DNA from: Desulfarculales bacterium
Lineage (GTDB): Bacteria > Desulfobacterota > Desulfarculia > Desulfarculales > Desulfarculaceae
Direction of reading: 5' to 3'
Assembly: GCA_031554335.1 (NCBI GenBank)
Contig: JAVBVK010000003.1
Location: 86,144 to 150,143, forward strand
Length of the DNA stretch: 64,000 nt
Shown: positions 3,247 through 28,907 of the stretch, piece after piece
Layout of the letters: every line of letters begins with the position of its first letter
How positions within the stretch are numbered: the stretch's first letter is position 1
Translations under genes and position numbers: made by a program
Notes under the pieces: generated by a model
Databases searched by the model: none
What the model was told of the DNA's origin: nothing
Seen by the model: the letters and a program-made list of their open reading frames with translations, nothing else

Positions 3247-3282
3247 CACCCCATACCATATTGTAATGGCACCTAAAAATGT

Positions 3283-3315
3283 AAGCCCGCGCCCAAGGTG
3301 GCGCGGGCTTTTTAT
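3283..3315 (+). terminator. intrinsic terminator after phosphomannomutase gene
   Basis: GC-rich stem agcccgcgcc/ggcgcgggct followed by a T-run. Confidence 0.7.
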
Positions 3316-3366
3316 TGCGCGAAGGCCTGTTATGTTTATTTCATGAAATAAGCTAACAATACATAG

Positions 3367-3395
3367 TTGCGCGCTAATTGCATTGTTGCTAGAAT
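3367..3395 (+). promoter_or_regulatory. sigma70-like promoter candidate (TTGCGC-17 nt-TAGAAT)
   Basis: -35 TTGCGC at 3367-3372, exact 17-nt spacer, -10 TAGAAT at 3390-3395, inside a 515-bp non-coding gap. Confidence 0.4.
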
Positions 3396-3517
3396 TACTT
3401 AATACGTGGGGTGCTCGCTTTTAGCGTTTAGCCGCATGGACAACAAGTTGTTTTGCAAAAAGGAGCACAGTCGCTTGTGCCGCTTAACATGAGTTTTTGT
3501 AGTTGCATATTAGAAAT

Positions 3518-3563
3518 CCGCTTCGCTGGTCACCCTACCGGTTGAGCGGGTTTTTTGTTTTTT
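3518..3563 (+). terminator. terminator-like imperfect hairpin plus long T-run inside the leader of the 3761 gene
   Basis: CCGCT..CTGG / CCGG..AGCGG stem followed by TTTTTTGTTTTTT. Confidence 0.5.
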
Positions 3564-3760
3564 GCTCCTGCCTTTCTATTGTTTCTGCGCAAGCGTGTTC
3601 CAAGCTGCTTGCCCGCTTTGTTCCAGCCATAACAACCCCGTGTTATTAAGTTTTGCTAGTTTACCTTTTGGCAGAAGCCGGGCCTGAGGCTGGCGCTTGT
3701 TTAAACCGCCAGCAATTATGGCTGCGATATTTGAGTAGTTAGAAAGGAGAAGTTTTATTT

Positions 3761-5395: not shown

Positions 5396-5401
5396 ATTTT
5401 A

Positions 5402-5430
5402 CCCTCGGCGGGCTTCATGCCCGCCGAGGG
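5402..5430. terminator. bidirectional hairpin between convergent genes
   Basis: Perfect 12-bp stem ccctcggcgggc/gcccgccgaggg with a 5-nt loop. Confidence 0.6.
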
Positions 5431-5457
5431 TGGCAGGAATACATTATGTTAGGCCAG

Positions 5458-7395: not shown

Positions 7396-7429
7396 ATACT
7401 ATGCTCTTTGCGTAAATAGCGGTAAGTTA

Positions 7430-8380
7430 CTAAAGTGCCTTGTCGCTCTTGAATGCTGGCACCCGCTCGGTGCCGCATGAGCTTAATTCTTGTATAAAGC
7501 CGTTGTTAAGCCCGTGTTTTTTAAGCGCAGCCAGAGCCTCTTCATATTCGTCGCGGCTGATGGGCCGGTTCAGCCCTTCTCTGGTTGCCGCTTTATGCAT
7601 AGGCGTATACTGCGCCATAAGGCTTACCCACACATCAGTGGTGCAAAGACTGGCCAGGCGTTTAAGCACGGCCGGCGAGTCTGCCTTGCCTTGCGGTAAT
7701 ACCAGATGGCGCACTAAAAGCCCCTTCACGGCAACGCCCTGTTCATCTACAGCCAAGTGCCCCACCTGGGCCAGCATTTCTTTCAAGGCGGCCCGCACCA
7801 CCAGCGGATAATCTTCCGCATCGGACAGTTCCGCTGCTATATCTTCGTCAAAATATTTGAAATCGGGCAGATATATTTCTATGAGACCGTTTAGGACTTT
7901 CAGCGTATCCAGGCGCTCATAACCGCTGGTGTTATACACCACTGGTATGTTTAATCCCATATCGCGCGCCAAGGCCAACGCCTTTAATATAACCACTAAA
8001 TGCGGAGTAGGGGTAACCAGATTTAAGTTGTGGGCTCCCTGCTCTTGTAAAGATAAAAAGGCCTCGGCCAGCTCAATAGCCCCCATCATAGTGGGGTTGT
8101 CTTGCCGGCGGCTTATTTGGTGGTTTTGGCAAAACAGGCAGGAAAGGGTGCAGCCGCTAAAAAATACAGTGCCCGAGCCGTTGCTGCCAGAGATAGGAGG
8201 CTCTTCGCCAAAATGTAGCTGCGTGATATTGACCGGGGCCAAGGTGCCGGCGCCGCAGTAGCCGGTTTCGCCCATTATGCGGTTAACGCCACACTGGCGT
8301 GGGCACAGACGGCAAGAGCTAAGCCAGCTATTAAGCTCTTGGGCGGCTTCAAAATATTTTTTAAAGTTGGGAAATTCCAT
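7430..8380 (-). CDS. radical SAM protein (PflX-like activase family)
   Basis: 'CTLSCLFCQN' CxxxCxxC cluster plus N-terminal 'CRLCPRQCGVNR'. Confidence 0.8.
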   Translation of the reverse strand: MEFPNFKKYFEAAQELNSWLSSCRLCPRQCGVNRIMGETGYCGAGTLAPVNITQLHFGEEPPISGSNGSGTVFFSGCTLSCLFCQNHQISRRQDNPTMMGAIELAEAFLSLQEQGAHNLNLVTPTPHLVVILKALALARDMGLNIPVVYNTSGYERLDTLKVLNGLIEIYLPDFKYFDEDIAAELSDAEDYPLVVRAALKEMLAQVGHLAVDEQGVAVKGLLVRHLVLPQGKADSPAVLKRLASLCTTDVWVSLMAQYTPMHKAATREGLNRPISRDEYEEALAALKKHGLNNGFIQELSSCGTERVPAFKSDKAL

Positions 8381-8481
8381 TGCCTAAGTTATATCCTTCT
8401 AATCGGCGTTTGTTTAGTTTGCGGCGTATAGCCATTTTTTATCCATATTGTTGCTCAAGGTCAAAAAGATAATATGTCGTT

Positions 8482-10617: not shown

Positions 10618-10626
10618 GAAGATTCC

Positions 10627-13056
10627 TTATTGATTGTTGGCGCTAAGCATTTCAGGCGCAAAGCCTAGGCGGGCGACTAGCGGTTTCATTTTTTCCGGTA
10701 TGGTGCCCGGCGAAAGGCTGTCTACCAAAAGGTGAACAGTATTCTGGGCACGCCACAAATTGGGTTTTATGCTAAAGGCCTGAGCCAGATCTAGCAAGTT
10801 GTTAACCAGCTCTATCCTAGAGGGATCGTTCTGCGCTCTGTGCAGGTACAGGTTGTCGGTTTCGCGTTCCAAGAGAGACTCAAAGGCCAGTTGCAGGGCG
10901 GAATAGTTGCTCACCATAACCCCCATGGCCTTGGCCTGCATTGCCAACTGGTTAAGTTTGTGTGGTATGGGGTCGCCCGTGGTTAGCGACTCCAGGCTGC
11001 TCATAAGCTGGTCTACCGTGACGATTTCAGCCAACGTTAAAAAAATGCGCGGCAGAGGTAAATTCATTTCCCGAAAGATCCGCATGGCCTCCCGGGCTTC
11101 GTCGTAAATAGAGGTTATTGACTTGCGGTAATTGTTGAGTACCGTGCCAAAGGCGGCCTTGGCCAGCATAGAACGGGTTTCTTCAGCCAGCTGTGTCGGA
11201 TCTACCCGTTTGTAGCCATGGGCATTGGTAAGCACCGCCCTAAGCTGATGAGCGTTGGCGTCTTGCAGCAGAGCGTAGAAATACTTCCAATTGGCCTTAT
11301 CATCGCTAGATTCGCTCCATGGCGATACAATGCATACAGGTTCGGTTTCCGGAACATAAAAAATGATATAACTGAATTTGTGCTGCAACAGTAAGTGGTG
11401 GTGCCGAAAACTCAACGCACCGCCAAACAAACGCATGCTTAAATGCTTGGCTTGTTCACTCCAGTCAGACTCTACCGCATAACAGTGAAAGTTGCTATCT
11501 ACCGTAGTACGGTTTACAATTGAGGGCAGCACTGCCTCTATTACCAGTTGTTCTGGCTTTATCCAGTCGCCCCATACATGGCGGCGCCATATATCGAGCC
11601 CGGTGCCTTCGGTGCGTTGATTGGAAATGGCGGTTTCCAGCGTGGCCAGCAGTTTGCGCTGATAGCTGCCAGATTTAATTGATTCGGCCAGTTCAATGGC
11701 GCGCGCCGCGTAGCGCATATTTTGTATTGGTTCCAGGCCCGCTATATCATCGAAAAACCATCCGCAGGAAGTAAACGTATACATACTGTAACGGCTACAT
11801 TCCATAAGTTTCATGGCCGTATGGGCTTCAAGCTGGTTTAATTCTTTAGCCTGGTTACGTCGCAAAAAATCGTGAATGGCTTCTATCGTGGCCGGGCCCT
11901 GCAAAAAATTTATATAGTCGTTGCGCGCCTGGTAAGGGTCTTTGAAAAGCTCGCGGCCATAAGTTTCCATAAGCCCGCTTATGTCGTCTCTTAGCTCGTC
12001 AAAGGCCTTACGTAGAGGCGCGCGCCAGGCCAGGCTCCACCCCTGCCCGTGCCCGCCACAGCCGCAATCAGAGCGCCAGCGTTCCACCCCATGCGCGCAA
12101 GACCATGATGACCTCTCCACGATTTGCGCTTCCCAGGTGGGAGGGTTGTCAGCCAGAAAGGCGGCGTAGTTGCTAAGGGTGGTTGTCGGGTCTTTGTGCA
12201 GGGCCTGCAAGGCATAGGCTAAAGCCATTTCGCCAAAACGGTGGTGATGGCCGTAAGACTCTCCGTCGGTGGCCATATTGGCCAGTTGCGCTTCCGCCGG
12301 AAACTTATCCAACGCATCACGCACGCGGTTTGCAAAAACAGCGCCATCATTAAGCACGCCTTCAAAAGCAATGGCCTGGCTCAAGGGGCCGTCATAAAAA
12401 AACAGGGCCAGCCTGCCGCCGCTGGGCAGGGTGACAAAATAGGGGCGTTTAGGGTCAATGCGCCCTCCACGCATGTCCTGCCAGGGAGAGTAATTGCTGG
12501 CACGTGCCGCCGCGGCCTGTCCTGGAGCCAGAATAGTGAACTTTATGCCTTCCGCTGCCAGCACATCCAGGGTTTCCAAATCTACCGCCGCTTCGGCCAG
12601 CCACATGCCTTCGGGCTTGCGCGCAAAATATTTTTCAAAATTGGCTATACCCCATTTTACCTGGGTTATTTTGTCTTGGCGGTTAGCCAAGGGCATTATG
12701 ATATGATTGTAAACTTGGGCTATGGCATTACCGTGCCCAAGGCGTGCCAGGCTTTTTTTGTCGGCGGCCTGCAGCTCTTCCACCGTGCGCGGGTTATGTT
12801 TGGCCAGCCAGTCTAACAATGTAGGGCCGAAATTAAAAGATATGAATTCGTAGTTATTTAATATTTCGATAATTTGTGCCGCGTTGTTTAAAATGCGGGC
12901 TGCGGTGTTGGGCGCATAACATTCAGAATTTACTCTCTCATTCCAGTCATGGAAGGGACTGGCGCTGGGCTGGGTTTCTATATCTTCCAGCCAGGGGTTC
13001 TCTCGGGGGGGCTGATAAAAATGTCCATGAATGCAGACAAATTTTTTGTTTTTCAT
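10627..13056 (-). CDS. GH57 domain protein with long C-terminal extension (DUF3536-like)
   Basis: 'IHGHFYQPPRENPW' GH57 N-terminus. Start moved to the ATG at 13056 (MKNKKF...). Confidence 0.8.
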   Translation of the reverse strand: MKNKKFVCIHGHFYQPPRENPWLEDIETQPSASPFHDWNERVNSECYAPNTAARILNNAAQIIEILNNYEFISFNFGPTLLDWLAKHNPRTVEELQAADKKSLARLGHGNAIAQVYNHIIMPLANRQDKITQVKWGIANFEKYFARKPEGMWLAEAAVDLETLDVLAAEGIKFTILAPGQAAAARASNYSPWQDMRGGRIDPKRPYFVTLPSGGRLALFFYDGPLSQAIAFEGVLNDGAVFANRVRDALDKFPAEAQLANMATDGESYGHHHRFGEMALAYALQALHKDPTTTLSNYAAFLADNPPTWEAQIVERSSWSCAHGVERWRSDCGCGGHGQGWSLAWRAPLRKAFDELRDDISGLMETYGRELFKDPYQARNDYINFLQGPATIEAIHDFLRRNQAKELNQLEAHTAMKLMECSRYSMYTFTSCGWFFDDIAGLEPIQNMRYAARAIELAESIKSGSYQRKLLATLETAISNQRTEGTGLDIWRRHVWGDWIKPEQLVIEAVLPSIVNRTTVDSNFHCYAVESDWSEQAKHLSMRLFGGALSFRHHHLLLQHKFSYIIFYVPETEPVCIVSPWSESSDDKANWKYFYALLQDANAHQLRAVLTNAHGYKRVDPTQLAEETRSMLAKAAFGTVLNNYRKSITSIYDEAREAMRIFREMNLPLPRIFLTLAEIVTVDQLMSSLESLTTGDPIPHKLNQLAMQAKAMGVMVSNYSALQLAFESLLERETDNLYLHRAQNDPSRIELVNNLLDLAQAFSIKPNLWRAQNTVHLLVDSLSPGTIPEKMKPLVARLGFAPEMLSANNQ

Positions 13057-13243
13057 AGCGCGTCCTCGGCAAGGCTTGAGAATTAGGGGGCCATAACTCA
13101 AGCCCAAGATAAACTAAAGTTGCATTATAGTATAATACCATAATAATTATACACATAAGCATCAATAAGTAACCACCGGCCAAAGTGTGTGGCACGGTTG
13201 AAGTAAGTGGGAAAACAAGCTGCACTAGTTAGCGGGAAAAGGT

Positions 13244-17992: not shown

Positions 17993-18610
17993 ATGTTCCC
18001 CTGTCTAAATTTATTAGAGCTGGCTCAACTAAGTGTAAGCCGGGTGTTAGCTCCGGGCGGGCTGGCCGTAGACGCCACGGCTGGCAATGGCTTTGACACG
18101 CTTTTTTTGGCCAGGCAGGTGGGAGAGGCCGGTCTGGTTGCGGCTTTTGAAATACAGGCCCAAGGCTTGGCCAATACCGGCGCGCTGTTGCGCGAACACG
18201 GGCTTGCCCGCAGAGTGCGTTTGCTGGCCGTGGGCCACGAGCACATGGCCGCTCAGGTGGAGCTGTTTAAAGAAGAGGATAAGAGGCGGCAACCGGGGGC
18301 GATAATGTTTAACCTGGGTTTTTTGCCGGGCAGCGACAAACAGATTAAAACCAGGCCCGCCACCACCTTGGCGGCATTAGAGCAGGCGGTCGGTTTACTG
18401 TCGGCCGGGGGCATAATTACTGTCCATTGCTACAACGGGCATGCGGGCGGGCAGGAGGAAGGCGATGCGGTGCTTGAATGGGCGCGCGCTTTGGATGCCA
18501 AGCGCTTCAGGGTTTACGGCTATCAGGCGCTCAACAAAAGGCGCGGGCCCGAGCAGTTGTTGCTGATAGGCCGTAGGGTTGCCCGAGAGGCAAGACACCC
18601 GTCACTATAA
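17993..18610 (+). CDS. class I SAM-dependent methyltransferase (YtqB/MnmM-like putative RNA methylase family)
   Basis: 'VDATAGNGFDTLFLARQVG' motif I and ~200-aa size. Confidence 0.65.
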   Translation: MFPCLNLLELAQLSVSRVLAPGGLAVDATAGNGFDTLFLARQVGEAGLVAAFEIQAQGLANTGALLREHGLARRVRLLAVGHEHMAAQVELFKEEDKRRQPGAIMFNLGFLPGSDKQIKTRPATTLAALEQAVGLLSAGGIITVHCYNGHAGGQEEGDAVLEWARALDAKRFRVYGYQALNKRRGPEQLLLIGRRVAREARHPSL

Positions 18611-19083
18611 ACCAACACCCCCTAACGGCCTGGGCCGGCCTTTTCCACAAGCCCGCGTCGCAGCATATTGGCATAGGCCCTGCGGTACGTCGGTTGGCTG
18701 GGCCGCAAGCCCCTTTGCCCCAGCAATTCCGCAACCCGCGATATAAACAGCATTCCCTTTCTTCGTATCCACAGCAATGCAAGGGTGCAGCCATTGCCAG
18801 GATGCGCGTAACTGTATAACTAATGCACCCCCAAAAATTCACAACGGGTAAGCTTGTCTTCGGCAAAACTGAAATTGGCAAACCCCACATTGGAAGCATG
18901 CAAATATACTGAAAAAAGTTTCTGCAATGCCATGGCGCAGCTAAGTTGCTGTAAAGAAAGGTGTTTAAAAAAATATCGTCACTATGCAGCCTGTGAATAT
19001 TGCTATTTACCCAGAAGTTTCCAGGCCCAGCTCACGAGCAAAAACGTTGTTTTTTGCATAGTTATACAAATATGTCCGGGATT

Positions 19084-19335
19084 TCAGCCTGATTGTGGCA
19101 GGCGCCGCAGTTGAACACCGCCAAATGGCTCAGTTGGTGGCCAGGGGGCATCGGCGCCATGGGTCATCACCGTGTACATGGAATCCACCCCGCCGGAAAA
19201 ACCGCTGGCCACCCCGGCGCTGGGCTGGGCCTGGCCGTTAAGCGGACCATGGATGGCAAAGAGCTGCTTGTTCTGGCAGTTGGCGGAAAGCGTGGGAATA
19301 TAATATTGGCTTGGCTGGTAATACAAGCGCGCCAA
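19084..19335 (-). pseudogene. possible truncated PP-loop ATPase/amidotransferase fragment
   Basis: The 83-aa ORF contains 'GFSGGVDSMY' (SGGxDS PP-loop) but stops after about 30 further residues. Downstream frames look protein-like but are broken. Confidence 0.3.
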
Positions 19336-19367
19336 TATGGAACATGCGCTATTTTCTATTCATACTA

Positions 19368-19508
19368 CAAGCCATTTCATAAATGGCTTGTAACGCCGCC
19401 TGGAACAGGCTTACGCGGCGGCGCAAGCCGCCGGGAGCGAAGCAAAAATCACACTTTTTGCTTCGCGCTCCGTCATAAATCACCCTTTAGGGGGATTTGT
19501 GAAATAAC
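19368..19508 (+). repeat. multi-hairpin intergenic element, copy A
   Basis: CAAGCCATTT-CAT-AAATGGCTTG hairpin, CAGGCTTACGCGGCG block and AAATCACCC-TTTA-GGGGGATTT hairpin. The related copy at 56709-56796 is inverted. Confidence 0.6.
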
Positions 19509-19637
19509 TTCCAATATTGGTTAGTAAAGCGTTAAGTTGAATTTTGGTGTATTATTATATTATGATAATGCCATTGCTTATCGTTTTTTACTACAATACC
19601 CTGTTCTCTTTGACAAGAATTAGTGTACATAATTGCC

Positions 19638-20816
19638 ATGGCCGCTTCTACGGTTAGCTATTTGCATTTTTTCAAAACTGCTCTGCACCTTAATGGGACA
19701 GACCTGAAGCTGCTCCGCCTGCTGTTTGCTCCCAAGATAGATCCGCAAAACCTGGCGGATATTTTTGCCCGCTTCAAAGTTGATGAATTGCGCCAGGAAG
19801 AGGTAAGCCTGCTTTCGCAATTGTGCATTAAGGCCAATTATCAGGGGGTGCCTCCAGCACAGCGCCCTAGGATGAAAGGTGTTTCGCGCTATTTTGTTAC
19901 CCTGAACGCCCGCCAGACCTTCACCTTCCTGCAGTTGGCAGAACTTTATGCCCAAGCGGGCATTGAGGTGCTTTTATGCAAAGGCATTGCCATGCGCCTG
20001 GGTTACATGAAGGATCAGTCCCGCCATATGTGGGATGTGGACATTGCTGTCCGCCCGCGAGATTACGAGCGCGCCGTAGCCCTGGCCCGGCAGCATGGCT
20101 ATGCGGGCAAGCCGGGCATGCATGCCACCACCTTGGAAAAAGAAAAATACCTGCCCATAGACCTGCATTCTTATTTTCATAAAACCAGTGTGAAGGGCAT
20201 TGATGAAGGCGGAGTGTGGCAACGCAGCCGGCGGTTGAACATTCACGGGCAAAAACTTTTGCTGCCCGGCGTGGAAGATATTCTGGCACAACTGCTCACC
20301 AACGCCTTTTCCAATATTGTCATTGAAGGCAATACGCGGCCGCACCTGAAATGGATATATGATGCCGGCTGGCTTATACGATTTGCTGGTGTAAGTTGGC
20401 CACTGCTTTTCAAGGTTGCCCAAGAACTGCGGGTGGCCCATTTTGCTAAGCTTATGCTGCTGCTGCTGGAAGAGGTTTTACCGGGCACTGTCAACATGGC
20501 CGCTTTGGACAAAGCCTTTCCAGGCTATGAAAACAACAATACGCTGTTTGCCCATTATTACCGCAGCGCCATTTACTTCAAACGCTACTTCAGCGCCAAA
20601 CAAAGCGGCAAGCTAAGCAAATACATACTGCTGTGGCCCGGCTTTTGCTGGCACTACCACCGTTATTATCAGTACGGCCTGCCGTTGGCCAAACAAATCG
20701 AGCTGTTTCCCCAATATATAAAAACCATAATGGGTGCCCGTTCATGGTGGGGTTTACCGCTGGCCAGCATAAACAAAATTGCCCTTAGAATGAAGCGTGA
20801 TCGGGAGCTGTGTTGA
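19638..20816 (+). CDS. uncharacterised nucleotidyltransferase family protein (NTP_transf_5-like)
   Basis: 'MWDVDIAVRPRDYERAVALARQHGY' nucleotidyltransferase-fold motif. First ATG is at 19638; the listed 19623 start is GTG. Confidence 0.65.
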   Translation: MAASTVSYLHFFKTALHLNGTDLKLLRLLFAPKIDPQNLADIFARFKVDELRQEEVSLLSQLCIKANYQGVPPAQRPRMKGVSRYFVTLNARQTFTFLQLAELYAQAGIEVLLCKGIAMRLGYMKDQSRHMWDVDIAVRPRDYERAVALARQHGYAGKPGMHATTLEKEKYLPIDLHSYFHKTSVKGIDEGGVWQRSRRLNIHGQKLLLPGVEDILAQLLTNAFSNIVIEGNTRPHLKWIYDAGWLIRFAGVSWPLLFKVAQELRVAHFAKLMLLLLEEVLPGTVNMAALDKAFPGYENNNTLFAHYYRSAIYFKRYFSAKQSGKLSKYILLWPGFCWHYHRYYQYGLPLAKQIELFPQYIKTIMGARSWWGLPLASINKIALRMKRDRELC

Positions 20817-21889
20817 TAAGAGGGGTTACCAGAAGGATAAGCGGCGACGAGCAGCACCTGGCGCTTTATTTCGACAAAGTAAAGGAACGCCTGGCCGGGC
20901 TGCAGAAAAGCCGTAATTACGCTCCCCAGCCCATTGTGTTGAATCTTGCCGGCAAGCGGGTGGGGGTGGTTTTCGGTTCACAGGCCAATGAAGACGCGCT
21001 CATGCCTTCCCTGGCCTCCCAGCGTGCGCCGGGGCAAACCCCCGATGCGGGCTGCCTGTATTTCTGGCAGGATTGGCCCGGCAACTACTGCCCGGCCATT
21101 GAGCAAGACGACTTTGATGAAGAAGTCTGGCGCCATGAAAGCGCGGCGGCTAAGATTTTTGTGCCCATTAAAAAAGTGTACTACCTGGCCTGGCACTATG
21201 CGCGCAACGAATTTTTCTATTGTCTGCCTGCCACGCATTGCCAAAACTTCATCCACACCACCCATCCGCTGCGCCCCCAGTTGCATGCCTGGGCTTTGCA
21301 GCATGACCTGCTGTTTGCCCATGGCGCGGCGGTGGAGGTTGCCGGGTGCGGCATTTTCATAGGCGCGGCCAGTGGCAGCGGCAAATCCACCCTGGCTACC
21401 AGCTGCCTGTTGGCCGGCCATAAGTTTGCCGGCGACGACTATGTGCTCATTGATCGTGGCAATGTGGCGCACATGGTTTGCGCCACCGCCAACCTGCACC
21501 TGGACATGCTTGAGCGCATGCCCGCTTTGCGGCGGAAGGTCATCGGTAAAGATGCCAGATGCGACAACAAAACTCTGCTGGACTTGAGCGATTACGCTCA
21601 AGCATTAAAACAGCATATTAAACTGCGCATGGTGCTTATCCCCCGGCTAAGCACCAATGAAGGGCCCGCCATACGCCAGGTAAGCCCGGCGCGGCCGCTT
21701 TGGGAGGTGGTGCGCTCCACCGCCGAGCAGAATGGCGTACCTCATAGCCGAATTTTTATTAACAAAGTTTTTACGCAACTGACCTCTTTGCCAGTGTATG
21801 AATTTTTATTAAGCCCGGATGTTAACTGTAATGTCGAAGCGCTTGAAACATTTGTGAAGAAAAGGAAAGCTTATGTATTGTCTGAATGA
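20810..21889 (+). CDS. HPr kinase/phosphorylase-like P-loop protein (HprK-related kinase)
   Basis: 'GAASGSGKSTLATSCLLAGHKFAGDDYVLI' matches the HprK C-terminal P-loop plus DD motif. Overlaps the upstream gene by 7 nt. Confidence 0.7.
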   Translation: MLIRGVTRRISGDEQHLALYFDKVKERLAGLQKSRNYAPQPIVLNLAGKRVGVVFGSQANEDALMPSLASQRAPGQTPDAGCLYFWQDWPGNYCPAIEQDDFDEEVWRHESAAAKIFVPIKKVYYLAWHYARNEFFYCLPATHCQNFIHTTHPLRPQLHAWALQHDLLFAHGAAVEVAGCGIFIGAASGSGKSTLATSCLLAGHKFAGDDYVLIDRGNVAHMVCATANLHLDMLERMPALRRKVIGKDARCDNKTLLDLSDYAQALKQHIKLRMVLIPRLSTNEGPAIRQVSPARPLWEVVRSTAEQNGVPHSRIFINKVFTQLTSLPVYEFLLSPDVNCNVEALETFVKKRKAYVLSE

Positions 21890-22295
21890 AAGCAAAATGT
21901 TTTACGATTTGGCCGACAATCAGGCCATTATTATCGATTCCAGCACCGGTTTTTATTATGCGCTGAACATGCTGGGCTCCATGGTGTTCGACTATCTGGC
22001 CAAGGGCGCTTCCAGCGCGCTTATCCGCGCTGAACTACAAAAGCTGCCCCAGGCGCCCCCAGATGCCCCCAAACTGCTGGAAGAGTTTGAAGCGTACCTT
22101 TTGCGGCATGAAATTCTTCTGCCCGCTGAACAAGCTGTTGATATGCCCATAGCCTTTGCCGCGGAACTGGCGGCCAATGGTTTTGCCTTGGAAATTGAAC
22201 AATTCAACGATGCCCAGGAAATAATGCTGGCCGACCCTGTGCACGATGTGGACCTTGAAACAGGCTGGCCTTTTCTCAAGCAACCTGAACAATAG
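21873..22295 (+). CDS. PqqD family (RRE-like) protein
   Basis: Small protein with the pattern '...IIIDSSTGFYYALNMLGSMVFDYL'. Overlaps the upstream gene by 17 nt. Confidence 0.6.
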   Translation: MYCLNESKMFYDLADNQAIIIDSSTGFYYALNMLGSMVFDYLAKGASSALIRAELQKLPQAPPDAPKLLEEFEAYLLRHEILLPAEQAVDMPIAFAAELAANGFALEIEQFNDAQEIMLADPVHDVDLETGWPFLKQPEQ

Positions 22296-22297
22296 AG

Positions 22298-24130
22298 ATG
22301 CGGCCCGCCCTAGCGCCCCCGGAGCAATGCTTTGGCTGCCATGCCTGCCAGGCGGTTTGTCCAGAACAGGCTATTTTCATGCGGGAAGATGAAGAAGGCT
22401 TCACTTATCCTCATGTGGATTACGCGCGCTGTAAGCAATGCGAGTTATGTGCGCGCACCTGTCCGGCTTTGCGGCCCCATGAACATACGACATTGCCCAT
22501 AAAATTTTTAGGGTGCAGGCACCTGGACGCATCCACCAGAATGGGCAGTTCCTCGGGTGGCCTTTTCCCGGCCCTGGCGCGCGCCATGATCGCCCAGGGT
22601 GGTGTGGTTTATGGGGCCGCTCTGAAGCCGGCCGGTTTGGGCCTGGTGGTTCAGCACCGGCCCATCACCCATGCCGGCCAGCTTGGCGCCCTGCAAGGCT
22701 CCAAGTATGTGCAGAGCGCCATGGGCGGGGTTTGGCAAGCGCTGCGCGCGCATTTGGCTCAAGGCCCGGTGTTGTTTTCCGGCACGCCATGCCAGGTGGC
22801 TGCGGCCCGCGCCCTGGCCGGCCAGTACCATGACAGGCTGCTGACTATGGATCTTATCTGCGACGGTGTGGCCAGCCCCAAACTGTTTGCCCGATATCTG
22901 GCAGCGCTGGGCTCGGTTACAGGTTTTTGTTTTCGCGACAAAGCCGGCCACCAAAATTCGCGCGTGATTAGCTGGGAACAAAACAATAAGAAGTATTTTT
23001 CCCCTTATATCATCAATAGTTTCATGCATTTTTATTGTACAAAATTGTGCATGCGCCCCGCCTGCCATAGCTGCCCCTATGCCAGCTTGCAAAGAGCAGG
23101 CCATATAAGCGCCGGAGATTTTCATGGCGTGGAGCTGGTTGGCGGTGAATTGGACGATGGCATGGGGGTAAGCCTGGCCTTGCTCAACACTGCTGAGGGC
23201 ATGGCGGCATGGCAGGCTGTGGACCATTTATTCCACAACGTGGAAGTGACACAAGCACAGGCCATGCAGCCTCGTTTGCAACAGCCGCCTCAGGCTTCAT
23301 CGCAGCGCGCCAGCTTCATGACCCACCTGGCAACCATGTCATACCCGCAATTGGAACAACATTATCCCATCCATAAAAATCGGCAGCAAACCATGCTGCA
23401 CAATATAAAAGCCTTGCACAGCCTGCGCGCGCGGCAAGGCGCGCAAAATCCGCCTGAAATTTCAGTGCTGATAGTATGCTATAATTACGCGCATTTTCTC
23501 ATGCAGTGCCTAACCAGCGTGGGCGCGCAAACCTTTACCAGTTATGAAATTATTTTGGTAGATGACGGCTCCACAGACAATACCGCGCAAATAGCCAAGG
23601 CTTACCCGCGTGTACGCTATATCCGGCAAGAACACCAGGGCGTGGCCGCCGCCCGTAATACCGCGGTTAGAGCTGCGCGCGGTCAGTACCTGGCCTTTCT
23701 GGATGCGGACGACTATTGGCCGGTCCAGCGTTTGGCCACATTGTTGAACCATGCCAAAGCCTGCGCGCCAAAACTTGTGTTTGGCGCAATGCGGAATTTT
23801 TACCACAGCCCCCAGGTTGAAGATATCCCGCTGGCCCGGATCATGGCCAGGCGTTCCCAGGCGGTGCTGCCTTCCCTGACCCTGCTGCCCCGCACATTCT
23901 TTGATCTTTACGGCTGGTTTGATGAAAGCAAATTGTTCGGAGAAGACAGCGATTATATGGAGCGCCTGGTGGCGGCCCGCCTGGAGTTCGCCCACATCAA
24001 GGCCCCGGTGTTATATCGCCGCCTGCATGGAGACAACATTTCCTTAACACTGCGCAAAGAAAGTTTTCATCAAGACAGGTTGCGGCGCCTGGCGGCCGAT
24101 ATTCGCAAGCACCGCAAGGCAATGGCGTAA
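22298..24130 (+). CDS. fusion protein: 2x[4Fe-4S] ferredoxin + FrhB-like domain + family 2 glycosyltransferase
   Basis: 'CFGCHACQAVCP' and 'CKQCELCARTCP', then the 'SSSGGLFPALA' FrhB-like region. The C-terminal half carries 'ISVLIVCYNY...ILVDDGSTDNT...FLDADDYW'. Confidence 0.75.
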   Translation: MRPALAPPEQCFGCHACQAVCPEQAIFMREDEEGFTYPHVDYARCKQCELCARTCPALRPHEHTTLPIKFLGCRHLDASTRMGSSSGGLFPALARAMIAQGGVVYGAALKPAGLGLVVQHRPITHAGQLGALQGSKYVQSAMGGVWQALRAHLAQGPVLFSGTPCQVAAARALAGQYHDRLLTMDLICDGVASPKLFARYLAALGSVTGFCFRDKAGHQNSRVISWEQNNKKYFSPYIINSFMHFYCTKLCMRPACHSCPYASLQRAGHISAGDFHGVELVGGELDDGMGVSLALLNTAEGMAAWQAVDHLFHNVEVTQAQAMQPRLQQPPQASSQRASFMTHLATMSYPQLEQHYPIHKNRQQTMLHNIKALHSLRARQGAQNPPEISVLIVCYNYAHFLMQCLTSVGAQTFTSYEIILVDDGSTDNTAQIAKAYPRVRYIRQEHQGVAAARNTAVRAARGQYLAFLDADDYWPVQRLATLLNHAKACAPKLVFGAMRNFYHSPQVEDIPLARIMARRSQAVLPSLTLLPRTFFDLYGWFDESKLFGEDSDYMERLVAARLEFAHIKAPVLYRRLHGDNISLTLRKESFHQDRLRRLAADIRKHRKAMA

Positions 24131-24804
24131 TGGATCTGTCAGTGATCATACCGGCCTATAATGCGCGGGCCTATCTTGCCCAGTGCCTGCAAAGCGCTTT
24201 TGCGGCCTGCCAACGGGCTGCCATAACCTTTGAAATAATTGTTGTTGATGACGGCTCCACTGATAATACCGCGGCACTGGCCGCGCAACTGGGCGCGCGG
24301 CTTATCCGCCAGCCGCAGCGTGGCGCGGCGGTGGCCCGCAATGCGGGTTTGCTGGTGGCTAGGGGGCGGTTTGTTATGTTTCTGGATGCGGATGATATAT
24401 TGCTGGATCAGGCGGTGGCCAGCCTGCTGGCCCCTTTATTGGCCGACGCCGCTTTGCTGGCCAGCTTTGCTCTGGCGCAAGAATTCATCTCGCCAGAATT
24501 GCCGCCGGAACAGCAACGCCGCTTTGCCGTGCGCCCCTTGCCCTATGCCGGCTGTCTGCCGGGCTGTGTTATGGTGCGGCGTCCGGTCTTTGACAAAGTC
24601 GGCCGGTTTGACGAAACCCTGCCGGCCGGGGAAACCGTTGCCTGGCTGTTAGCGCTTAAGGATACGGGTGGCCCCTTTGCCGACCTTGACATCACCACTT
24701 TGCATCGCCGGCTGCATCCGGCCAGCACCGGCATGACCCAACGGGCCCTGGAGCAAAAAAGCTACCTAGCCCTGTTGCGCAACCGCATGAAGAACCGCTT
24801 ATGA
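24130..24804 (+). CDS. glycosyltransferase family 2
   Basis: 'SVIIPAYNA...IIVVDDGSTDNT...FLDADD'. The start overlaps the upstream stop (TAATG). Confidence 0.85.
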   Translation: MDLSVIIPAYNARAYLAQCLQSAFAACQRAAITFEIIVVDDGSTDNTAALAAQLGARLIRQPQRGAAVARNAGLLVARGRFVMFLDADDILLDQAVASLLAPLLADAALLASFALAQEFISPELPPEQQRRFAVRPLPYAGCLPGCVMVRRPVFDKVGRFDETLPAGETVAWLLALKDTGGPFADLDITTLHRRLHPASTGMTQRALEQKSYLALLRNRMKNRL

Positions 24805-25637
24805 ACGAACTGGTAAGCATTATAACCCCCACCTATCGGGCGGAACCATTTATCGCGGAATTTTTGCAAAGCGTGCTGGCCCAGAGCTATTCGCCCATAG
24901 AGTTTATCCTGGTTAATGACGGTTCTGACGACAATAGCGAGGCTATCATAAACGCCAGCGCCGCCGCTTTCCGGCAGCGCGGCATTAGCTTGCGCTATTT
25001 GCGCCAGCCTCACCAGGGGCAGGCCGCCGCCTTCAACCTGGCCCTGCCGCAGGTTTCGGGTAAGTATCTTACCTGGGCCGACTCTGACGACATTCTGCAT
25101 GCCGACAACATAAGGCTTAAAGTGGAATACATGCGTGCTCATAAAGATTGCCGCATGCTGCGCTGCAACGCTGTTGAGTTCAACCAGCTAACCGGGAGGG
25201 TAATTGGCCAAACCGCGCGGGCGCATGACAAAGCGGCCAGCAATATTTTCGAACGCCTGGTCAGCAGCACAACTTATTGCCTGGCCGGCTGCTATATGCT
25301 GGAAACTTCGCTGTTCAGGGAATGCTACCCCGGGTTGCGCATTCCGGAATCGTCCCTTGGGCAAAACCTGCAAATGCTTTTACCGCCAGCCAGCCGGGTT
25401 GTTTGTCACTATATTGACGCGGTTCTGCTCAATTACCGGCGGCATCCCGGCAGCCACTACCATTCGCAGCTTTCCTGGGGCAAAAGCCTGGCCAGGCTGA
25501 AGGCCCATGGCGCGCTGCTTAAAGCCATAGCCCCTTATTGCGCTACGGGCCAAGAATTTTTATTGAGCTACGAACCGGAAAAACCTATGTTGGATAAACT
25601 GCGTGCCACCCTAAACGCGCGCTCGGGTATGTTATGA
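24801..25637 (+). CDS. glycosyltransferase family 2
   Basis: 'VSIITPTYRAEPF...ILVNDGSDDNS...WADSDD'; 4-nt overlap with the upstream gene. Confidence 0.85.
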   Translation: MNELVSIITPTYRAEPFIAEFLQSVLAQSYSPIEFILVNDGSDDNSEAIINASAAAFRQRGISLRYLRQPHQGQAAAFNLALPQVSGKYLTWADSDDILHADNIRLKVEYMRAHKDCRMLRCNAVEFNQLTGRVIGQTARAHDKAASNIFERLVSSTTYCLAGCYMLETSLFRECYPGLRIPESSLGQNLQMLLPPASRVVCHYIDAVLLNYRRHPGSHYHSQLSWGKSLARLKAHGALLKAIAPYCATGQEFLLSYEPEKPMLDKLRATLNARSGML

Positions 25638-26713
25638 AGGTTGGAATTGTCACTTTCCATGAAGCGGCCAATTATGGCGCTGTGCTGCAGGCCTATGCGC
25701 TGCAAGAGGCCGTTAAGGAGCTGGGGGCCACGCCGTCATTTATTTCCTGCACCCCACTGGCCCCCGCGCCGCCGCCCGAGCCACCCGAGCTGCTGGCCCG
25801 CTTGCAAAAATTTCCGCGTTTGCGTGAAGAGCGGGAAAAAATGAAAGTCCAGCGCGGCAAAAGGAACGCTTTGTTCAGCGATTTCAGGCAGCGTTTGTCT
25901 ATTTCCCCGTCCTATACAGCCGAACAACTGCCCCAGTTGAATGCCGTTTATGACACATTCATTACCGGCAGCGACCAGGTGTGGAATTATGAGATTATTG
26001 GGCGCAATCCTTTTTACTTTCTGGACTTCGCCCATCGGGCCAAGCGTTTTTCCTATGCCGCCAGTTTCGGGCTGCATGAATTGCCAAAGCAGTTGCACGG
26101 CTGGTATGCCGAGCATCTGCTCCACTTTGCCCAAATATCTGTGCGAGAGGCTAGCGGGCAGAAGCTAGTTGCGCAACTGCTGCAACGGCAAGCCCACTTG
26201 TGCCTGGATCCGGTGTTTTTGCTTGACGCGCACAATTGGAAAAAACTGGCGTTATCTGCCCGTGCTGACGGACATGGTGGCGGGCAGCTTTTTCTGTATC
26301 TGGTAGACCTGGATAAGCGCCTGCTGCGCCTGGCCGGCACCTGGGCGGCGCAAACCCATAGGGAAGTAAAAATTGTAACCGCCAGCCTGCAGGGGCCACT
26401 GCCTCCTGAAACATGGTGCGGCACCGGTGTGGCTGAATTTGTGGCCGATATAGCCCAGGCCTCGCTGGTGCTCACTGATTCTTTTCATGGCCTGGCTTTG
26501 GCCATAATTTTCGGTAAGGATTTTTATGTGAGCGACAGGGTGCTGGAATCTCCCCGCGGCTCTCGCCTTGCGCATCTGTTGGCGCTAACCGGTCTATCCG
26601 CCCGCAGGGCTGACAATGCGCCTGCACCAGCCATAGACTGGCATGATGTCCATGACCGGCTGGCGCGGCAGAGGCAATTGTCGCTTCAGTATTTGCGCGA
26701 CATTGTAACTTGA
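25634..26713 (+). CDS. polysaccharide pyruvyl transferase family protein
   Basis: 'KVGIVTFHEAANYGAVLQAYALQ' N-terminus and 'TDSFHGLALAI' motif; 4-nt overlap with the upstream gene. Confidence 0.8.
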   Translation: MKVGIVTFHEAANYGAVLQAYALQEAVKELGATPSFISCTPLAPAPPPEPPELLARLQKFPRLREEREKMKVQRGKRNALFSDFRQRLSISPSYTAEQLPQLNAVYDTFITGSDQVWNYEIIGRNPFYFLDFAHRAKRFSYAASFGLHELPKQLHGWYAEHLLHFAQISVREASGQKLVAQLLQRQAHLCLDPVFLLDAHNWKKLALSARADGHGGGQLFLYLVDLDKRLLRLAGTWAAQTHREVKIVTASLQGPLPPETWCGTGVAEFVADIAQASLVLTDSFHGLALAIIFGKDFYVSDRVLESPRGSRLAHLLALTGLSARRADNAPAPAIDWHDVHDRLARQRQLSLQYLRDIVT

Positions 26714-28549
26714 GTGAAAAAAGAATTTATGTTATACGCCAGCCTGCAGGCCATTAAATCGGTATTCAAATATCTGCCCGGAAGGTTCCGTTTCCGCTTT
26801 GGCGTCAATATAGTTTTTTCAATAATTTTAAGCGGCCTGGAATTACTGCTGGCCGGCATTGTTTCCTTGATCGGGGTGTCCATGGTTTCTCCGGCTTTCA
26901 TGCTCCAACAGCCGGCAGTGGCCTTGCTGCTCACCCATGTTCCCTCACTCACCATGTTGTTTGCCGACCAGATGATACTGCTGGTGGCATTGATGGTACT
27001 GTTGTTTTTCATGTATCTTATCAAGATAGCCGCTTCCGCCTTCCTGGCTTGGTATCAATCGTTGTTCAGCCAGAACGTGGGCATTGAGTTGGGGCATAGA
27101 ATGTTCAGCGGGTTTTTGCATGCCCCTTATCTCTGGCACATCCAGCAAGATCTGTCCCGCCTGATGACCGATCTGTCCTGGCGTAACCATCTGGTTCTTT
27201 ATCTGCGTTTATCTCTAAATGCCATCAGCCAGACCATTGTGGTAATAATTCTGCTGGTTGCGCTTTTTTGCCTGGCTTCGGCCGCCGAGTTTTCAGCGGT
27301 GCTGCTTACCGGCCTTATTGCCTTTGCCGTATATTTAATGCTTAAAAAAAAGGTGCGCGCCATTACCCAAAAACTTACCGAACTGGAGGCGGAACAGGCG
27401 CGTATTACCTGGCCGGCCATACGGGGCATTCGTGAAGTTATCATACACCGGCAGCAAGACGCCTTTAGCCAGTATTTTAGCCAGATTCAAAAAAAGATGC
27501 GCCGTCTGAGGCTGTGGCTGGCAGTGCTGCAGCCTTCTCCGCCCTGGTTGCTGGAGCTGGCGGGAATTGGCATCCTGCTTTTGATCGTCTTTTACATGCG
27601 CGCTTCTGGCGCGGCGGTGGACCATATTGCCGGCACCATCGTAATCTTGTTTGCCATCTGCTGGCGTTTTCTGCCCTCGCTCAGCAAGGCGGTAAATTCC
27701 CTGCTGCAGATGCAGGCGTCTTTGCCATATTTAGAGCGTGTGATCATGCGCCTGGATGATGTGGAGCACGCTGAAGCACAACGCGGCACAGATAACACGG
27801 CCATAGCTTTTGCGCGCACAGTACAGTTACAAGGCATTAGTTTCAGATACCCCTCAACCCCTGGCGATGCCCCGGATGTTGTGAGCAACATCAACCTTAG
27901 CGTCACTAAAGGTACCATGGTGGGCTTTGTGGGGCTGCCCGGTTCGGGCAAGAGCACCCTGGCCGGCTTGCTTACCGGGCTTTTTGCGCCCACCAGCGGT
28001 GCCGTGCTTATTGACGGCCAGCCCTTAAGCGCCGCTTCACGGCAGCGATGGACAGCCAGCCTTGGTTATGTGCCGCAAACCCCCTTTGTATTGCATGACA
28101 GCATTGCCAACAATATTGCCTTCAGCAGGTGGGGGCAGCCGGTGGATGAGCAACGCATCATGCATACCTGCCAACTCAGTTCCATGGATTTTATCAATGA
28201 TTTGCCCGACGGCATTCATACGGTTGTGGGAGAAAACGGGGTACGCCTTTCTGGAGGGCAAATTCAGAAAATCGCCATTGCCAGAGCTTTATATGCGCAG
28301 CCGCAGCTTATTTTCTTTGACGAAGCCACCAACTCCTTAGACGAAGCTTCCGAACAGGCCATCTTGCGGGCATTGGTAAAACTGCATACTCACGCCACGG
28401 TGCTTATGGTAACTCACCGGCTCAACGCGCTTGCATCTTGCGATGTTATTCACTGGGTTGAAAATGGGGGTATTCGCTGCAGCGGGGAAAGCGGGTATGT
28501 GCTAGACCAATATCGCGATTTCCTGGCGCGGCGGGAATACAAACCGTAA
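26714..28549 (+). CDS. ABC transporter, fused permease/ATPase (MsbA-type exporter)
   Basis: Six-TM N-terminal half, Walker A 'GLPGSGKST', signature 'LSGGQIQKIAIARAL', Walker B 'LIFFDEATNSLD'. No C39 peptidase domain. Confidence 0.9.
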   Translation: MKKEFMLYASLQAIKSVFKYLPGRFRFRFGVNIVFSIILSGLELLLAGIVSLIGVSMVSPAFMLQQPAVALLLTHVPSLTMLFADQMILLVALMVLLFFMYLIKIAASAFLAWYQSLFSQNVGIELGHRMFSGFLHAPYLWHIQQDLSRLMTDLSWRNHLVLYLRLSLNAISQTIVVIILLVALFCLASAAEFSAVLLTGLIAFAVYLMLKKKVRAITQKLTELEAEQARITWPAIRGIREVIIHRQQDAFSQYFSQIQKKMRRLRLWLAVLQPSPPWLLELAGIGILLLIVFYMRASGAAVDHIAGTIVILFAICWRFLPSLSKAVNSLLQMQASLPYLERVIMRLDDVEHAEAQRGTDNTAIAFARTVQLQGISFRYPSTPGDAPDVVSNINLSVTKGTMVGFVGLPGSGKSTLAGLLTGLFAPTSGAVLIDGQPLSAASRQRWTASLGYVPQTPFVLHDSIANNIAFSRWGQPVDEQRIMHTCQLSSMDFINDLPDGIHTVVGENGVRLSGGQIQKIAIARALYAQPQLIFFDEATNSLDEASEQAILRALVKLHTHATVLMVTHRLNALASCDVIHWVENGGIRCSGESGYVLDQYRDFLARREYKP

Positions 28550-28583: not shown

Positions 28584-28907
28584 TCATCGCAAGCGGGATT
28601 TGACTTTGTCTGGGAAGAAGACGCTAAGCTGGAGGAGTATTTGTCTCCAGTTATGTATTCTTCCGGTCCATTTCAACATTACATTTCGGGTAACCAGGTA
28701 GAGCATTTTCAACAAGGCCTTGTCAGAGGGGAAGACGGATTTGCCCTTGGTCACCCCGTGTAATTGGCGGTGGCAGCTTTCGATAAAGTTGGCGATGTAG
28801 ATAGTTTTCCCGGTCTCAGTCTCTGGCCGCCACCTCAAACAAACGGGATATAACCGCCAAATCCAGGCGTATGCTATTGGCGCCCACGCCTTCTTCCTGC
28901 CTTTCAT
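28584..28907 (-). pseudogene. IS256/mutator-family transposase C-terminal remnant
   Basis: 'IYIANFIESCHRQLHGVTKGKSVFPSDKALLKMLYLVTRNVMLKWTGRIHNWRQIL' matches the conserved IS256 C-terminus. The catalytic part is absent. Confidence 0.6.

Follow-up and report, generated by a model that had tools for sequence, protein, structure and literature searches.

The closest described relatives of the genes considered here belong to lasso-peptide tailoring. In the paeninodin (PadeK) and pseudomycoidin (PsmB1, PsmK, PsmN, PsmD) clusters, a RiPP recognition element (RRE; RiPP, a peptide made by the ribosome and then modified post-translationally) called B1, an HprK-like kinase (K), a PF14907 protein (N), and an exporter with transmembrane and nucleotide-binding domains (TMD-NBD; D) lie side by side. 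PsmK phosphorylates the C-terminal Ser of pseudomycoidin, after which one or two hexoses are placed on the phosphate in a PsmN-dependent manner (PMC6993621). The exact activity of PsmN was left open by Zyubko et al., the making of a substrate for host glycosyltransferases being among the options (PMC6993621). A survey of the rumen listed 23 "incomplete lasso clusters" and noted HPr kinase, PqqD, nucleotidyltransferase, and family 2 glycosyltransferase (GT2) genes around lasso clusters (PMC7533575). We analyzed a 64,000-nt stretch of DNA from a Desulfarculales bacterium (assembly GCA_031554335.1, contig JAVBVK010000003.1, positions 86,144 to 150,143 of the forward strand; hereafter the window, numbered from its first letter), in which an operon of eight genes (g1 to g8, 19623-28549, + strand) joins RRE, kinase, and PF14907 genes to GT2 domains, a pyruvyl transferase, and an exporter.

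We found that the first half of this operon, with g5 and the GT2 part of g4 added, is one member of a four-part module (RRE, HprK/PEPCK-fold enzyme, small GT2, and PF14907 protein; PEPCK, phosphoenolpyruvate carboxykinase) that sequence comparison identifies as a widespread, large, uncurated family. Its genomic context indicates that the module serves cell-surface glycan loci as an accessory, and that it is neither a lasso cluster nor a classical RiPP cluster of another kind. For the operon as a whole we tentatively favor, as a plausible reading that falls short of a firm one, that it makes a short, cytoplasmically built, pyruvylated, and probably phosphate-linked glycoconjugate that would be exported by g8.

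The open reading frame (ORF) listing of the window gives eight co-directional ORFs, and from g1 to g8 the successive junctions are overlaps of 7 and 17 nt, a gap of 2 nt, overlaps of 1, 4, and 4 nt, and a junction of 0 nt. An earlier interpretation made from the letters of the DNA (the sequence-only reading) had listed these overlapping and abutting junctions exactly; it spoke of nine genes, but seven junctions give eight. Its start at 19638 is the first in-frame ATG of g1, whereas the ORF opens at a GTG at 19623. The genes encode a soluble PF14907 (NTP_transf_5) nucleotidyltransferase-fold protein (g1, 19623-20816, 397 aa, or 392 aa from the ATG at 19638), a two-domain P-loop phosphotransferase of the HprK/PEPCK fold (g2, 20810-21889, 359 aa, PF07475), a PqqD/RRE protein with an additional C-terminal extension (g3, 21873-22295, 140 aa, assigned by profile and structure), a fusion of a 2x[4Fe-4S] part, an FrhB/FdhB-like part, and a GT2 domain (g4, 22298-24130, 610 aa), a small soluble GT2 (g5, 24130-24804, 224 aa, PF00535 at E 1.4e-31), a further GT2 (g6, 24801-25637, 278 aa, PF00535 at E 8.8e-26), a polysaccharide pyruvyl transferase (g7, 25634-26713, 359 aa, PF04230), and a fused TMD-NBD ATP-binding cassette (ABC) exporter of type IV that is MsbA/HepA/PglK-like (g8, 26714-28549, 611 aa), all on the + strand. 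Pfam bore out the earlier assignments of the PF14907 protein, the HprK-like kinase, the pyruvyl transferase, and the fused exporter. The three GT2 domains were also all recovered, although the first is fused to 2x[4Fe-4S] and FrhB-like parts that had been overlooked.

Resemblance to lasso-peptide and HPr-rel-A proteins

g3 has no Pfam match of its own, and its sole NCBIfam match at E<=0.01 is to lasso_PqqD_Strm (20.3 bits against a cut-off of 70, E 5e-4). Because this hidden Markov model match is weak, the PqqD/RRE nature of g3 was established instead by profile and structure. Against the PDB, a profile of five family members matched TbiB1 (E 1e-8), the lasso B1 chaperone 9x90, and TfuB1. The AlphaFold2 (AF2) model (pLDDT 81) had its best Foldseek matches in the leader-peptide complexes of TbiB1 and TfuB1 (TMt 0.79-0.83), and some g3 homologues carry PF05402. 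The superposition on TbiB1/TfuB1 (TMt ~0.8) indicates that the N-terminal 85 residues of the model are a true, lasso-B1-like RRE fold. The PqqD-like identity proposed for the third gene was thus upheld by profile and by AF2/Foldseek.

Past residue 85, the monomer model contains a folded extension and then a disordered tail (residues 122-140, pLDDT <50). Family alignment defined a conserved motif in this region (residues 111-133, FNDAQEIMLADPVHDVDLETGWP, 22203-22271, + strand), with the consensus [FY]xD[ML]Q[DE]LLLxDP[IV]H[DE]V[DE]x2-3GWP over 101 tail segments. D, P, and H are invariant in 101 of 101 of these segments, which were cut around a DP[VILM]H match; in a broader sample, 133 of 150 g3-family representatives (<50% identity) have DP[VILM]H[DEN]..GW. 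The motif mostly ends 4-13 residues before the C-terminus (up to 30 in a few), and no other part of the family is as conserved as this tail. An exhaustive HMMER search put the family at 2,029 clusters at 50% identity (E<=1e-10).

g2 scored 36.3 bits with Hpr_kinase_C (PF07475), just above the gathering cut-off of 33.3, and the Pfam scan found nothing else in it. Residues H171, A174, V175, G191-K-S-T194, D209-D210, and K254 are invariant in 28 homologues. In the PDB, g2 matched HprK/P (1ko7, E 2e-6), and the AF2 model (pLDDT 89.6) resembles the C-domain of HprK/P (TMt 0.55-0.63); the best Foldseek match is ATP-PEPCK, over both domains (370-400 columns, TMq 0.52-0.60). g2 thus has the PF07475 score, the Walker A GKST and catalytic DD motifs, and the fold of an HprK/P-type enzyme. 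For g1, the PF14907 match is strong (101.8 bits against a cut-off of 31.2, E 6e-29), and the nucleotidyltransferase DxD is present as the DVD metal motif within HMWDVDIAV. A structure search found no solved relative of g1, and no transmembrane segment was found in it.

The HPr-rel-A system (TIGR04352 kinase and TIGR04353 PqqD protein) likewise pairs an HprK-like kinase with a PqqD-family protein. The sequence-only reading had likened the triad of g1, g2, and g3 to this system, as conserved and functionally unassigned. The triad is conserved, but the HPr-rel-A identity was rejected: g2 scored 31.8 bits with TIGR04352 against a cut-off of 200, and g3 had no TIGR04353 match at E<=0.01. Ten other genome-sampled HprK-like kinases also stayed below the TIGR04352 cut-off. 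By these scores, g2 and g3 form a separate, uncurated, and unnamed subfamily. Homologues of g2 also gave weak or faint matches to SynChlorMet ScmC (PF27840) in precomputed Pfam annotation, and ScmC occurs beside a PqqD homologue; unlike in SynChlorMet, however, there are no radical SAM/SPASM partners in the operon or recurrent among module neighbors. Mycofactocin biosynthesis also has a PqqD-like RRE (MftB) and a GT2 (MftF) in one pathway. In contrast to that pathway, the operon has no radical SAM MftC and no MftA-like precursor, and g5 scores far under the cut-offs (its best NCBIfam matches being TIGR04283 glyco_like_mftF, 78 bits against 182, and MftF TIGR03965, 77 bits against 280).

We then compared the operon with two lasso clusters among the loci that we collected (designated L and a number). 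L035 (Halalkalibacter) is a canonical lasso cluster with cyclase, kinase, B1, B2, PF14907, and ABC exporter genes, and L123 (Lachnospiraceae) is a lasso cluster that carries a GT2 as well. g1 is 20% identical to N of L035 over 138 aa, g2 is 34% identical to K over the 59-aa P-loop region, g3 gave no BLAST alignment with B1, and g8 is 27% identical to D, which is the level of generic ABC similarity. The proteins also differ in architecture: compared with the 100-aa B1 of L035, g3 alone has an extra 55-aa extension with the invariant tail, and g2 (359 aa) has ~160 residues before the P-loop domain, whereas the lasso-cluster kinases are 303-315 aa. Unlike the lasso clusters, the window has no cyclase, B2, or precursor. 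No lasso cyclase (Asn-synthase-like) lies in the operon or its flanks, PF13471 (B2) has no match among the scanned window proteins and is present in both control loci, and the tight junctions leave no precursor gene inside the operon. A small GT2, moreover, is an obligate partner in the g2/g3 family, unlike in the lasso B1/K/N set. Taken together, these comparisons suggest that in this module the lasso-type B1/K/N trio has been put to a second use in glycan loci, alongside a dedicated GT2, and the rumen "incomplete lasso clusters" may include it.

As had been suggested earlier, the sole characterized relatives of the triad act on lasso precursors (the B1 RRE, PsmK/PadeK, and PsmN; PMC6993621). 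The operon could accordingly be read as a RiPP-like system in which the RRE binds a ribosomal peptide whose gene lies elsewhere or is an ORF too short or too variable to be detected, the kinase phosphorylates its Ser or Thr, the PF14907 protein and the GT2s build a pyruvylated phosphoglycan, and the exporter secretes the glycopeptide. We consider this unlikely. Its appeal is that the fold of g3 is closest to lasso B1 proteins crystallized with leader peptides, that four genes of the canonical cluster L035 likewise encode K, B1, N, and a TMD-NBD exporter, that L123 shows a GT2 in a lasso cluster, and that the chemistry of PsmK and PsmN is a direct precedent: Ser phosphorylation followed by hexose addition on the phosphate fits the glycosyltransferases attached in the window. 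The junctions of the operon argue against it, as they are tight and enclose no small ORF, and so do the family-wide results below.

The module in other genomes

Neighborhoods of g2/g3 homologues were read from precomputed Pfam labels, and all of them contained an RRE, a kinase, a PF14907 protein, and a GT2. One genome per species was then scanned with a degenerate kinase pattern, H..AV-x15-GKST-x14-DD, which gave at least 120 loci. Among those listed, 14 were true family members and most others were different HprK-like subfamilies. The 14 come from Bradyrhizobium, Bosea, two Synechococcus strains, another cyanobacterium, Solirubrobacterales, Gaiellales, Acidimicrobiia, Smaragdicoccus, Gemmatimonadaceae, a gammaproteobacterium, and a chlamydial metagenome-assembled genome (MAG). 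Cultivated organisms that carry the module include Bradyrhizobium sp. AT1, Smaragdicoccus niigatensis DSM 44881, Synechococcus sp. Cruz-7E5 and ATX 2A4, and Butyrivibrio-type isolates from the rumen. Among the matches listed, a small GT2 stood beside the kinase in 12 of the 14 family loci compared with 5 of the 106 other HprK-like kinase loci, which had a PqqD protein in 40 cases and PF14907 in 33. A metagenome scan with the g3 motif yielded 41 more loci.

Our final set comprised 49 non-redundant loci from many phyla, with a subset of 20 that had at least 2.5 kb on each side. A kinase was found within 0.6 kb of the RRE gene in 42 of the 49 (18 of the 20), a GT2 within 1.5 kb in 42 (18), and PF14907 within 6 kb in 36 (16). 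The linkage of triad and GT2 is therefore not peculiar to this genome but characterizes a large family. The other components of the operon were less frequent: an MsbA-like exporter lay within 10 kb in 6 of 49 loci (5 of 20), a pyruvyl transferase within 10 kb in 4 (4), and Wzm/Wzt within 12 kb in 5 (5), the flag for L129 being probably an unrelated ABC ATPase. The earlier view that the triad is linked to glycosyltransferases in an uncharacterized pathway agrees with these counts, and our literature search found no paper describing an RRE/kinase/PF14907/GT2 module.

Natural fusions (RREx3-kinase, RRE-kinase, kinase-RRE, and RRE-GT2) confirm a functional link between the partners and are evidence that they are physically coupled. 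In the fusions the tail motif is internal, and in RRE-GT2 proteins it lies ~12 residues ahead of the GT2 fold. Three proteins of 780-850 aa (P0056, P0069, and P0120) have three tandem RRE modules followed by a kinase, and in these the DPVH..GWP tail is kept in the first RRE module only, the other two being degenerate. At L129 (5200-11754, Devosia MAG), a tandem-duplicated RRE-kinase-GT2 set is followed by a GT2 and PF14907, all among housekeeping genes; neither a polymerase nor a glycan exporter is close by, and the tail motif is intact in the two RRE copies.

These observations bear on whether g3 primes the glycan itself, its tail DP[IV]H[DE]V[DE]..GWP being phosphorylated (on His or Asp) or otherwise modified to form the arm on which the glycan starts before transfer or export. 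The tail exceeds all other parts of the family in conservation and is disordered in the model, as expected for a segment that works in a partner's active site; the RRE is naturally fused to the kinase or the GT2, both copies of the duplicated Devosia locus retain the motif, and no separate precursor gene was found. However, HprK-type enzymes are known solely as Ser kinases, and the motif lacks a conserved hydroxyl residue. A docking or interface element would fit an internal motif just ahead of the GT2 fold equally well, and a type IV ABC exporter would not obviously take a cytoplasmic protein of 140 aa as its cargo. On balance, we think a carrier role for the tail quite improbable.

The closest relatives (L128, L135, L149, and L151) repeat the cassette of the window, with FrhB, GT2s, a pyruvyl transferase, and an MsbA-like exporter. 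Elsewhere the module neighbors Wzx, CpsB, BY-kinase, and Wzy (L003), Wzy, MurJ, GT4, and Wzm/Wzt (L007), or a sugar aminotransferase, KAS III, methyltransferases, and radical SAM (L005), and Wzy is near the module in L152. In rumen-type Firmicutes loci, PGM lies 5' of the module and PIG-L/GT, CotH, Wzm/Wzt, and LicD lie 3' of it. Among 98 other neighbor proteins, the recurrent Pfam families were CotH, ABC_tran, PS_pyruv_trans, ABC2_membrane, PGM, and SLH, and none of the asparagine-synthase, transglutaminase, or radical SAM/SPASM families recurred. We asked whether such triads always lie within Wzx/Wzy or other exopolysaccharide (EPS) loci, a possibility that the sequence-only reading had set against itself. 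They are often inside Wzx/Wzy or Wzm/Wzt loci, but the stand-alone L129 means that the module is often, and not always, within a complete polysaccharide locus. L129, which lies between housekeeping genes and has no glycan export genes, would suit a RiPP-like product; the usual neighbors of the module (Wzm/Wzt, Wzx/Wzy, LicD, and CotH) argue against one.

Low-GC loci (38-47% GC), which we guess to be from Firmicutes of the rumen, have one or two ~559-aa CotH-kinase-family proteins, Wzm/Wzt, and a LicD-family phosphotransferase after the module. CotH follows the module in L139, L145, L146, and L150 and LicD is present in L145-L147; L154 is an unscanned member of the same cluster. The combination of CotH, Wzm/Wzt, and LicD suggests teichoic-acid-like, phosphate-rich glycopolymers. 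Some recurrent proteins of 368-647 aa within module neighborhoods have no Pfam match (L135 10480-11757, L149 10445-12388, and L135 5947-7053; clusters c11 and c17).

The position of PGM directly 5' of the module in several loci, with LicD 3', would also fit a pathway in which g2 and then the PF14907 protein act on a small molecule (compare LicA/LicC and HldE) to give an unusual nucleotide-activated GT2 donor, the PqqD protein having only a regulatory or assembly role. Over both domains, moreover, the model of full-length g2 is similar to a small-molecule kinase, PEPCK, and the production by PsmN of a substrate for host glycosyltransferases was left open (PMC6993621). Within the family, however, the g2 N-domain shows little conservation, unlike a small-molecule site, and all invariant residues are in the P-loop domain. 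Donor activation also leaves the obligate RRE partner, the fusions, and the conserved tail unexplained, and PF14907 has no demonstrated sugar-1-phosphate nucleotidyltransferase activity. We regard it as the most doubtful of the alternatives, and distinctly improbable.

A ribosomal precursor was sought as conserved small ORFs around the 49 modules, a check that had been proposed with the earlier interpretation. What it recovered was limited to antisense shadows of GT2 genes and a single ORF of 22 aa shared by close relatives. We rejected these clusters as precursors, as they are antisense GT2 shadows or limited to closely related loci, and no credible precursor emerged. The lack of a small ORF conserved over the 49 loci counts against a RiPP-like product, although a highly variable precursor could escape a search based on conservation. 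The sequence-only reading had named, as a way in which it might fail, that the PqqD-like protein lacks RRE features and that no peptide substrate exists; the RRE features are present, and in the operon and around these loci no substrate was found. GT2 adjacency, the glycan-locus context, the sugar-extending character of the GT2s (below), and the lack of a conserved precursor together make a glycan or glycoconjugate likelier than a classical RiPP. The earlier suggestion of a glycosylated or pyruvylated peptide or an unusual oligosaccharide is partly supported.

Downstream genes and a tentative pathway

g4 consists of a 2x[4Fe-4S] part with two intact CxxCxxCxxxCP motifs (residues 8-57, nt 22319-22468), an FrhB/FdhB-like part (residues 75-307, nt 22520-23218, PF04432), and a GT2 part (residues 386-562, nt 23453-23983), all on the + strand. 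The FrhB C-terminal domain PF04432 scored 51.4 bits against a cut-off of 23.3 and the N-terminal domain PF04422 scored 18.1 bits against 22. L128, whose g3 homologue is 56% identical, keeps the order of the g4 parts but divides them between two genes, one for the Fer4+FrhB protein (384 aa) and one for the GT2 (236 aa). FrhB/FdhB-like 2x[4Fe-4S] proteins lie beside pyruvyl transferases in the window (22298-23218, +, where the protein is fused to the GT2), in L128 (2282-3436), and in L135 (14322-15404).

The GT2 part of g4 is nearest to chondroitin synthase (108.8 bits), and g5 is nearest to chondroitin synthase (74 bits), GalT1, and PglI. For the two domains together, chondroitin synthase, GalT1, PglI, and heparosan synthase are closest, and the peptide glycosyltransferase SunS reaches only ~29 bits; by these scores, both domains resemble sugar-extending GT-A enzymes far more than SunS. 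The apparent sugar-to-sugar character of the GT2s speaks against a glycopeptide product. g5 and the g4 GT2 domain were the best seed matches to the 220-255-aa GT2s that adjoin kinase/RRE genes elsewhere. g6 is TuaG-like in NCBIfam (72 bits, under the cut-off). g7 matches PS_pyruv_trans PF04230 with 95.6 bits (cut-off 25.3, E 6e-27), and a g7-family gene also follows the module in L135, L149, and L151.

g8 contains ABC_membrane and ABC_tran in a single 611-aa protein with eight hydrophobic 19-aa windows, several of them abutting. Transmembrane prediction by hydrophobic windows makes it the sole membrane protein of the operon, the other enzymes being soluble. Its NCBIfam scores (MsbA 248, HepA 236, and PglK 226 bits) all miss the cut-offs (602, 725, and 1000). 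An NCBIfam scan found no C39/leader peptidase domain in g8, as the match to an NHLP bacteriocin exporter begins only at profile position 172, and this absence is a further point against the secretion of a processed RiPP. Exporters like g8 adjoin the module in L097, L103, L126, L140, and L151-L153.

With its soluble GT2s, pyruvyl transferase, and TMD-NBD exporter in one operon, the locus shares features with PglK/Wzk/HepA/MsbA-type and CsaB/WcaK/ExoV (PF04230) pathways. Unlike ABC-exporter glycan pathways, the window has no priming phosphoglycosyl transferase, ligase for the glycan, or polymerase. It also differs from a Wzx/Wzy-dependent locus, of which no flippase, polymerase, or chain-length regulator was found in the window, and from an ABC-2 (Wzm/Wzt) pathway, of which no ABC-2 permease with a separate ATPase was found there. 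These absences agree with the sequence-only reading: no priming phosphoglycosyl transferase, Wzx, Wzy, Wzm/Wzt, or chain-length gene is present among the annotated proteins of the 64-kb window. We know of no ABC-exporter glycan or pyruvylated polysaccharide pathway with an RRE/kinase/PF14907 module.

For the phosphate-linked glycoconjugate that we favor, the following order of events can be proposed. The RRE protein g3 would act as an adaptor or scaffold that selects the acceptor and docks the enzymes through its tail, and the kinase-like g2 would phosphorylate the acceptor. The PF14907 protein and the first GT2 would then attach one or more initial sugars to the phosphate or beside it, as PsmK and PsmN do on pseudomycoidin, and g5 and g6 would extend the chain. 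g7 and the FrhB-like iron-sulfur/flavin-type domain of g4 would add a pyruvate-derived group (a ketal or a reduced carboxyethyl), and g8, as an MsbA/PglK-like half-transporter, would move the product across the membrane. In this scheme the reaction order and the phosphate linkage are inferred, as are the adaptor function assigned to the tail and, above all, the acceptor, which could be a lipid-linked glycan, a protein, or a peptide.

Several points weigh against this scheme. To our knowledge, the RRE domain binds a peptide in every characterized case, and its role in a pure glycan pathway would be unexplained; nor do we know of a family member that has been studied experimentally. The similarity of g1, g2, and g3 to lasso N, K, and B1 is remote, so that transfer of function from them is weak. 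The tail alignment contains no conserved Ser, Thr, or Tyr, and the tail is thus not an obvious substrate for an HprK-type kinase. As the window has no priming transferase and loci such as L129 have no exporter or polymerase nearby, a lipid-linked route is putative as well. Finally, the role given to the FrhB-like domain is pure analogy: as in the MurA/MurB pair, it might reduce an enolpyruvyl group to a carboxyethyl ether.

A bolder reading is that the RRE protein presents its own tail, or a bound protein or peptide segment, to the kinase, and that the PF14907 protein and a dedicated GT2 build a phosphodiester-linked sugar primer. This would be a lipid-independent start of a glycan that ordinary glycan enzymes then extend, and we hold it to be a speculative idea with a rather low chance of being correct. 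If it is true, protein or peptide "phosphoglycosylation" would be a widespread route to bacterial surface glycoconjugates, and it would give the RRE its first role outside RiPP and cofactor biosynthesis. The module matters in other respects as well. RRE/PqqD domains are used as near-diagnostic RiPP markers, and here a very large RRE family, spread over many phyla, is tied to GT2s and surface-glycan loci, no precursor having been found. If these RREs bind peptides, they would point to an unrecognized class of phosphoglycosylated peptides or proteins; if they bind none, the rule that an RRE implies a RiPP needs revising and genome-mining tools would be miscalling such loci. The g2/g3 family also offers a testable handle on PF14907, whose sole functional datum is PsmN, and on the recurrent pairing of an FrhB-like iron-sulfur protein with a pyruvyl transferase. 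Its predicted function aside, the module is solid in its existence and composition, which are surprising for RiPP and glycan specialists alike.

Operon boundaries and flanking DNA

The operon is intact and not a fragment, being bounded by an AT-rich, promoter-like region on one side and by a transposase fragment and a tRNA-Phe island on the other. Directly 5' of g1, an AT-rich stretch (19537-19597, +) contains two sigma-70-like promoter matches, both of them weak (9/12 positions each, no better than shuffle expectation). This stretch ends a region of ~1 kb (18610-19623) that has no ORF supported by Pfam or NCBIfam; its longest ORF (19093-19524, TTG start) has no match in either database. An Rfam scan of the surroundings of the operon, including 18610-19623, gave no riboswitch and no RNA of another kind. 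Further upstream are genes for an HxlR regulator and an rRNA methylase. By its IorA homologues, the host is Thermodesulfobacteriota-like.

On the 3' side, a Mutator-family transposase remnant (28584-28907, -, 107 aa, C-terminal end only, E 3.6e-4) sits between the g8 stop codon and the attachment site of a 16.4-kb integrative element (29118-45528). The element lies in tRNA-Phe (45479-45554, minus strand) and is bounded by a perfect 51-bp direct repeat (29118-29168 and 45478-45528) that is the 3' end of tRNA-Phe. Because this attachment (att) repeat is the tRNA-Phe 3' end, the island lies beyond the operon, which it leaves uncut. We therefore rejected the idea that the island truncated a larger EPS locus, and the possibility raised earlier that the locus is a fragment of one fails with it: the att repeat is at tRNA-Phe, beyond the g8 stop. 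The island encodes an integrase (29362-30561), an HTH_17 excisionase-like protein, type III restriction (31254-34334) and methylase (34996-36870) proteins, an SNF2 helicase (36941-39496), a DUF4417 protein, and a MobA/VirD2 relaxase (42314-43585), and its GC content is 44-49% compared with ~53-57% in the flanks. Past tRNA-Phe are convergent HAD, NUDIX, RmlD, and RmlB genes.

The sole Asn_synthase protein of the window is encoded at 60009-61775 (+), 31 kb from the operon and not part of it. We considered it as a distant lasso cyclase and rejected it, its score being 80 bits against a cut-off of 525. The protein starts with MDIFCGIW, so that Cys2, which class II amidotransferases have at the N-terminus, is missing; in NCBIfam it is best matched by XrtA/PEP-CTERM amidotransferase (256 bits, cut-off 817), and its gene adjoins those for a type III glutamine synthetase and a flavin reductase. 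At the other end of the window, a glycogen/sugar-phosphate block (740-13107) contains genes for phosphomannose isomerase, phosphoglucomutase, a GlgB-like branching enzyme, and two GH57 proteins (one with DUF3536). This block is unrelated to the operon, although it could supply hexose phosphates.

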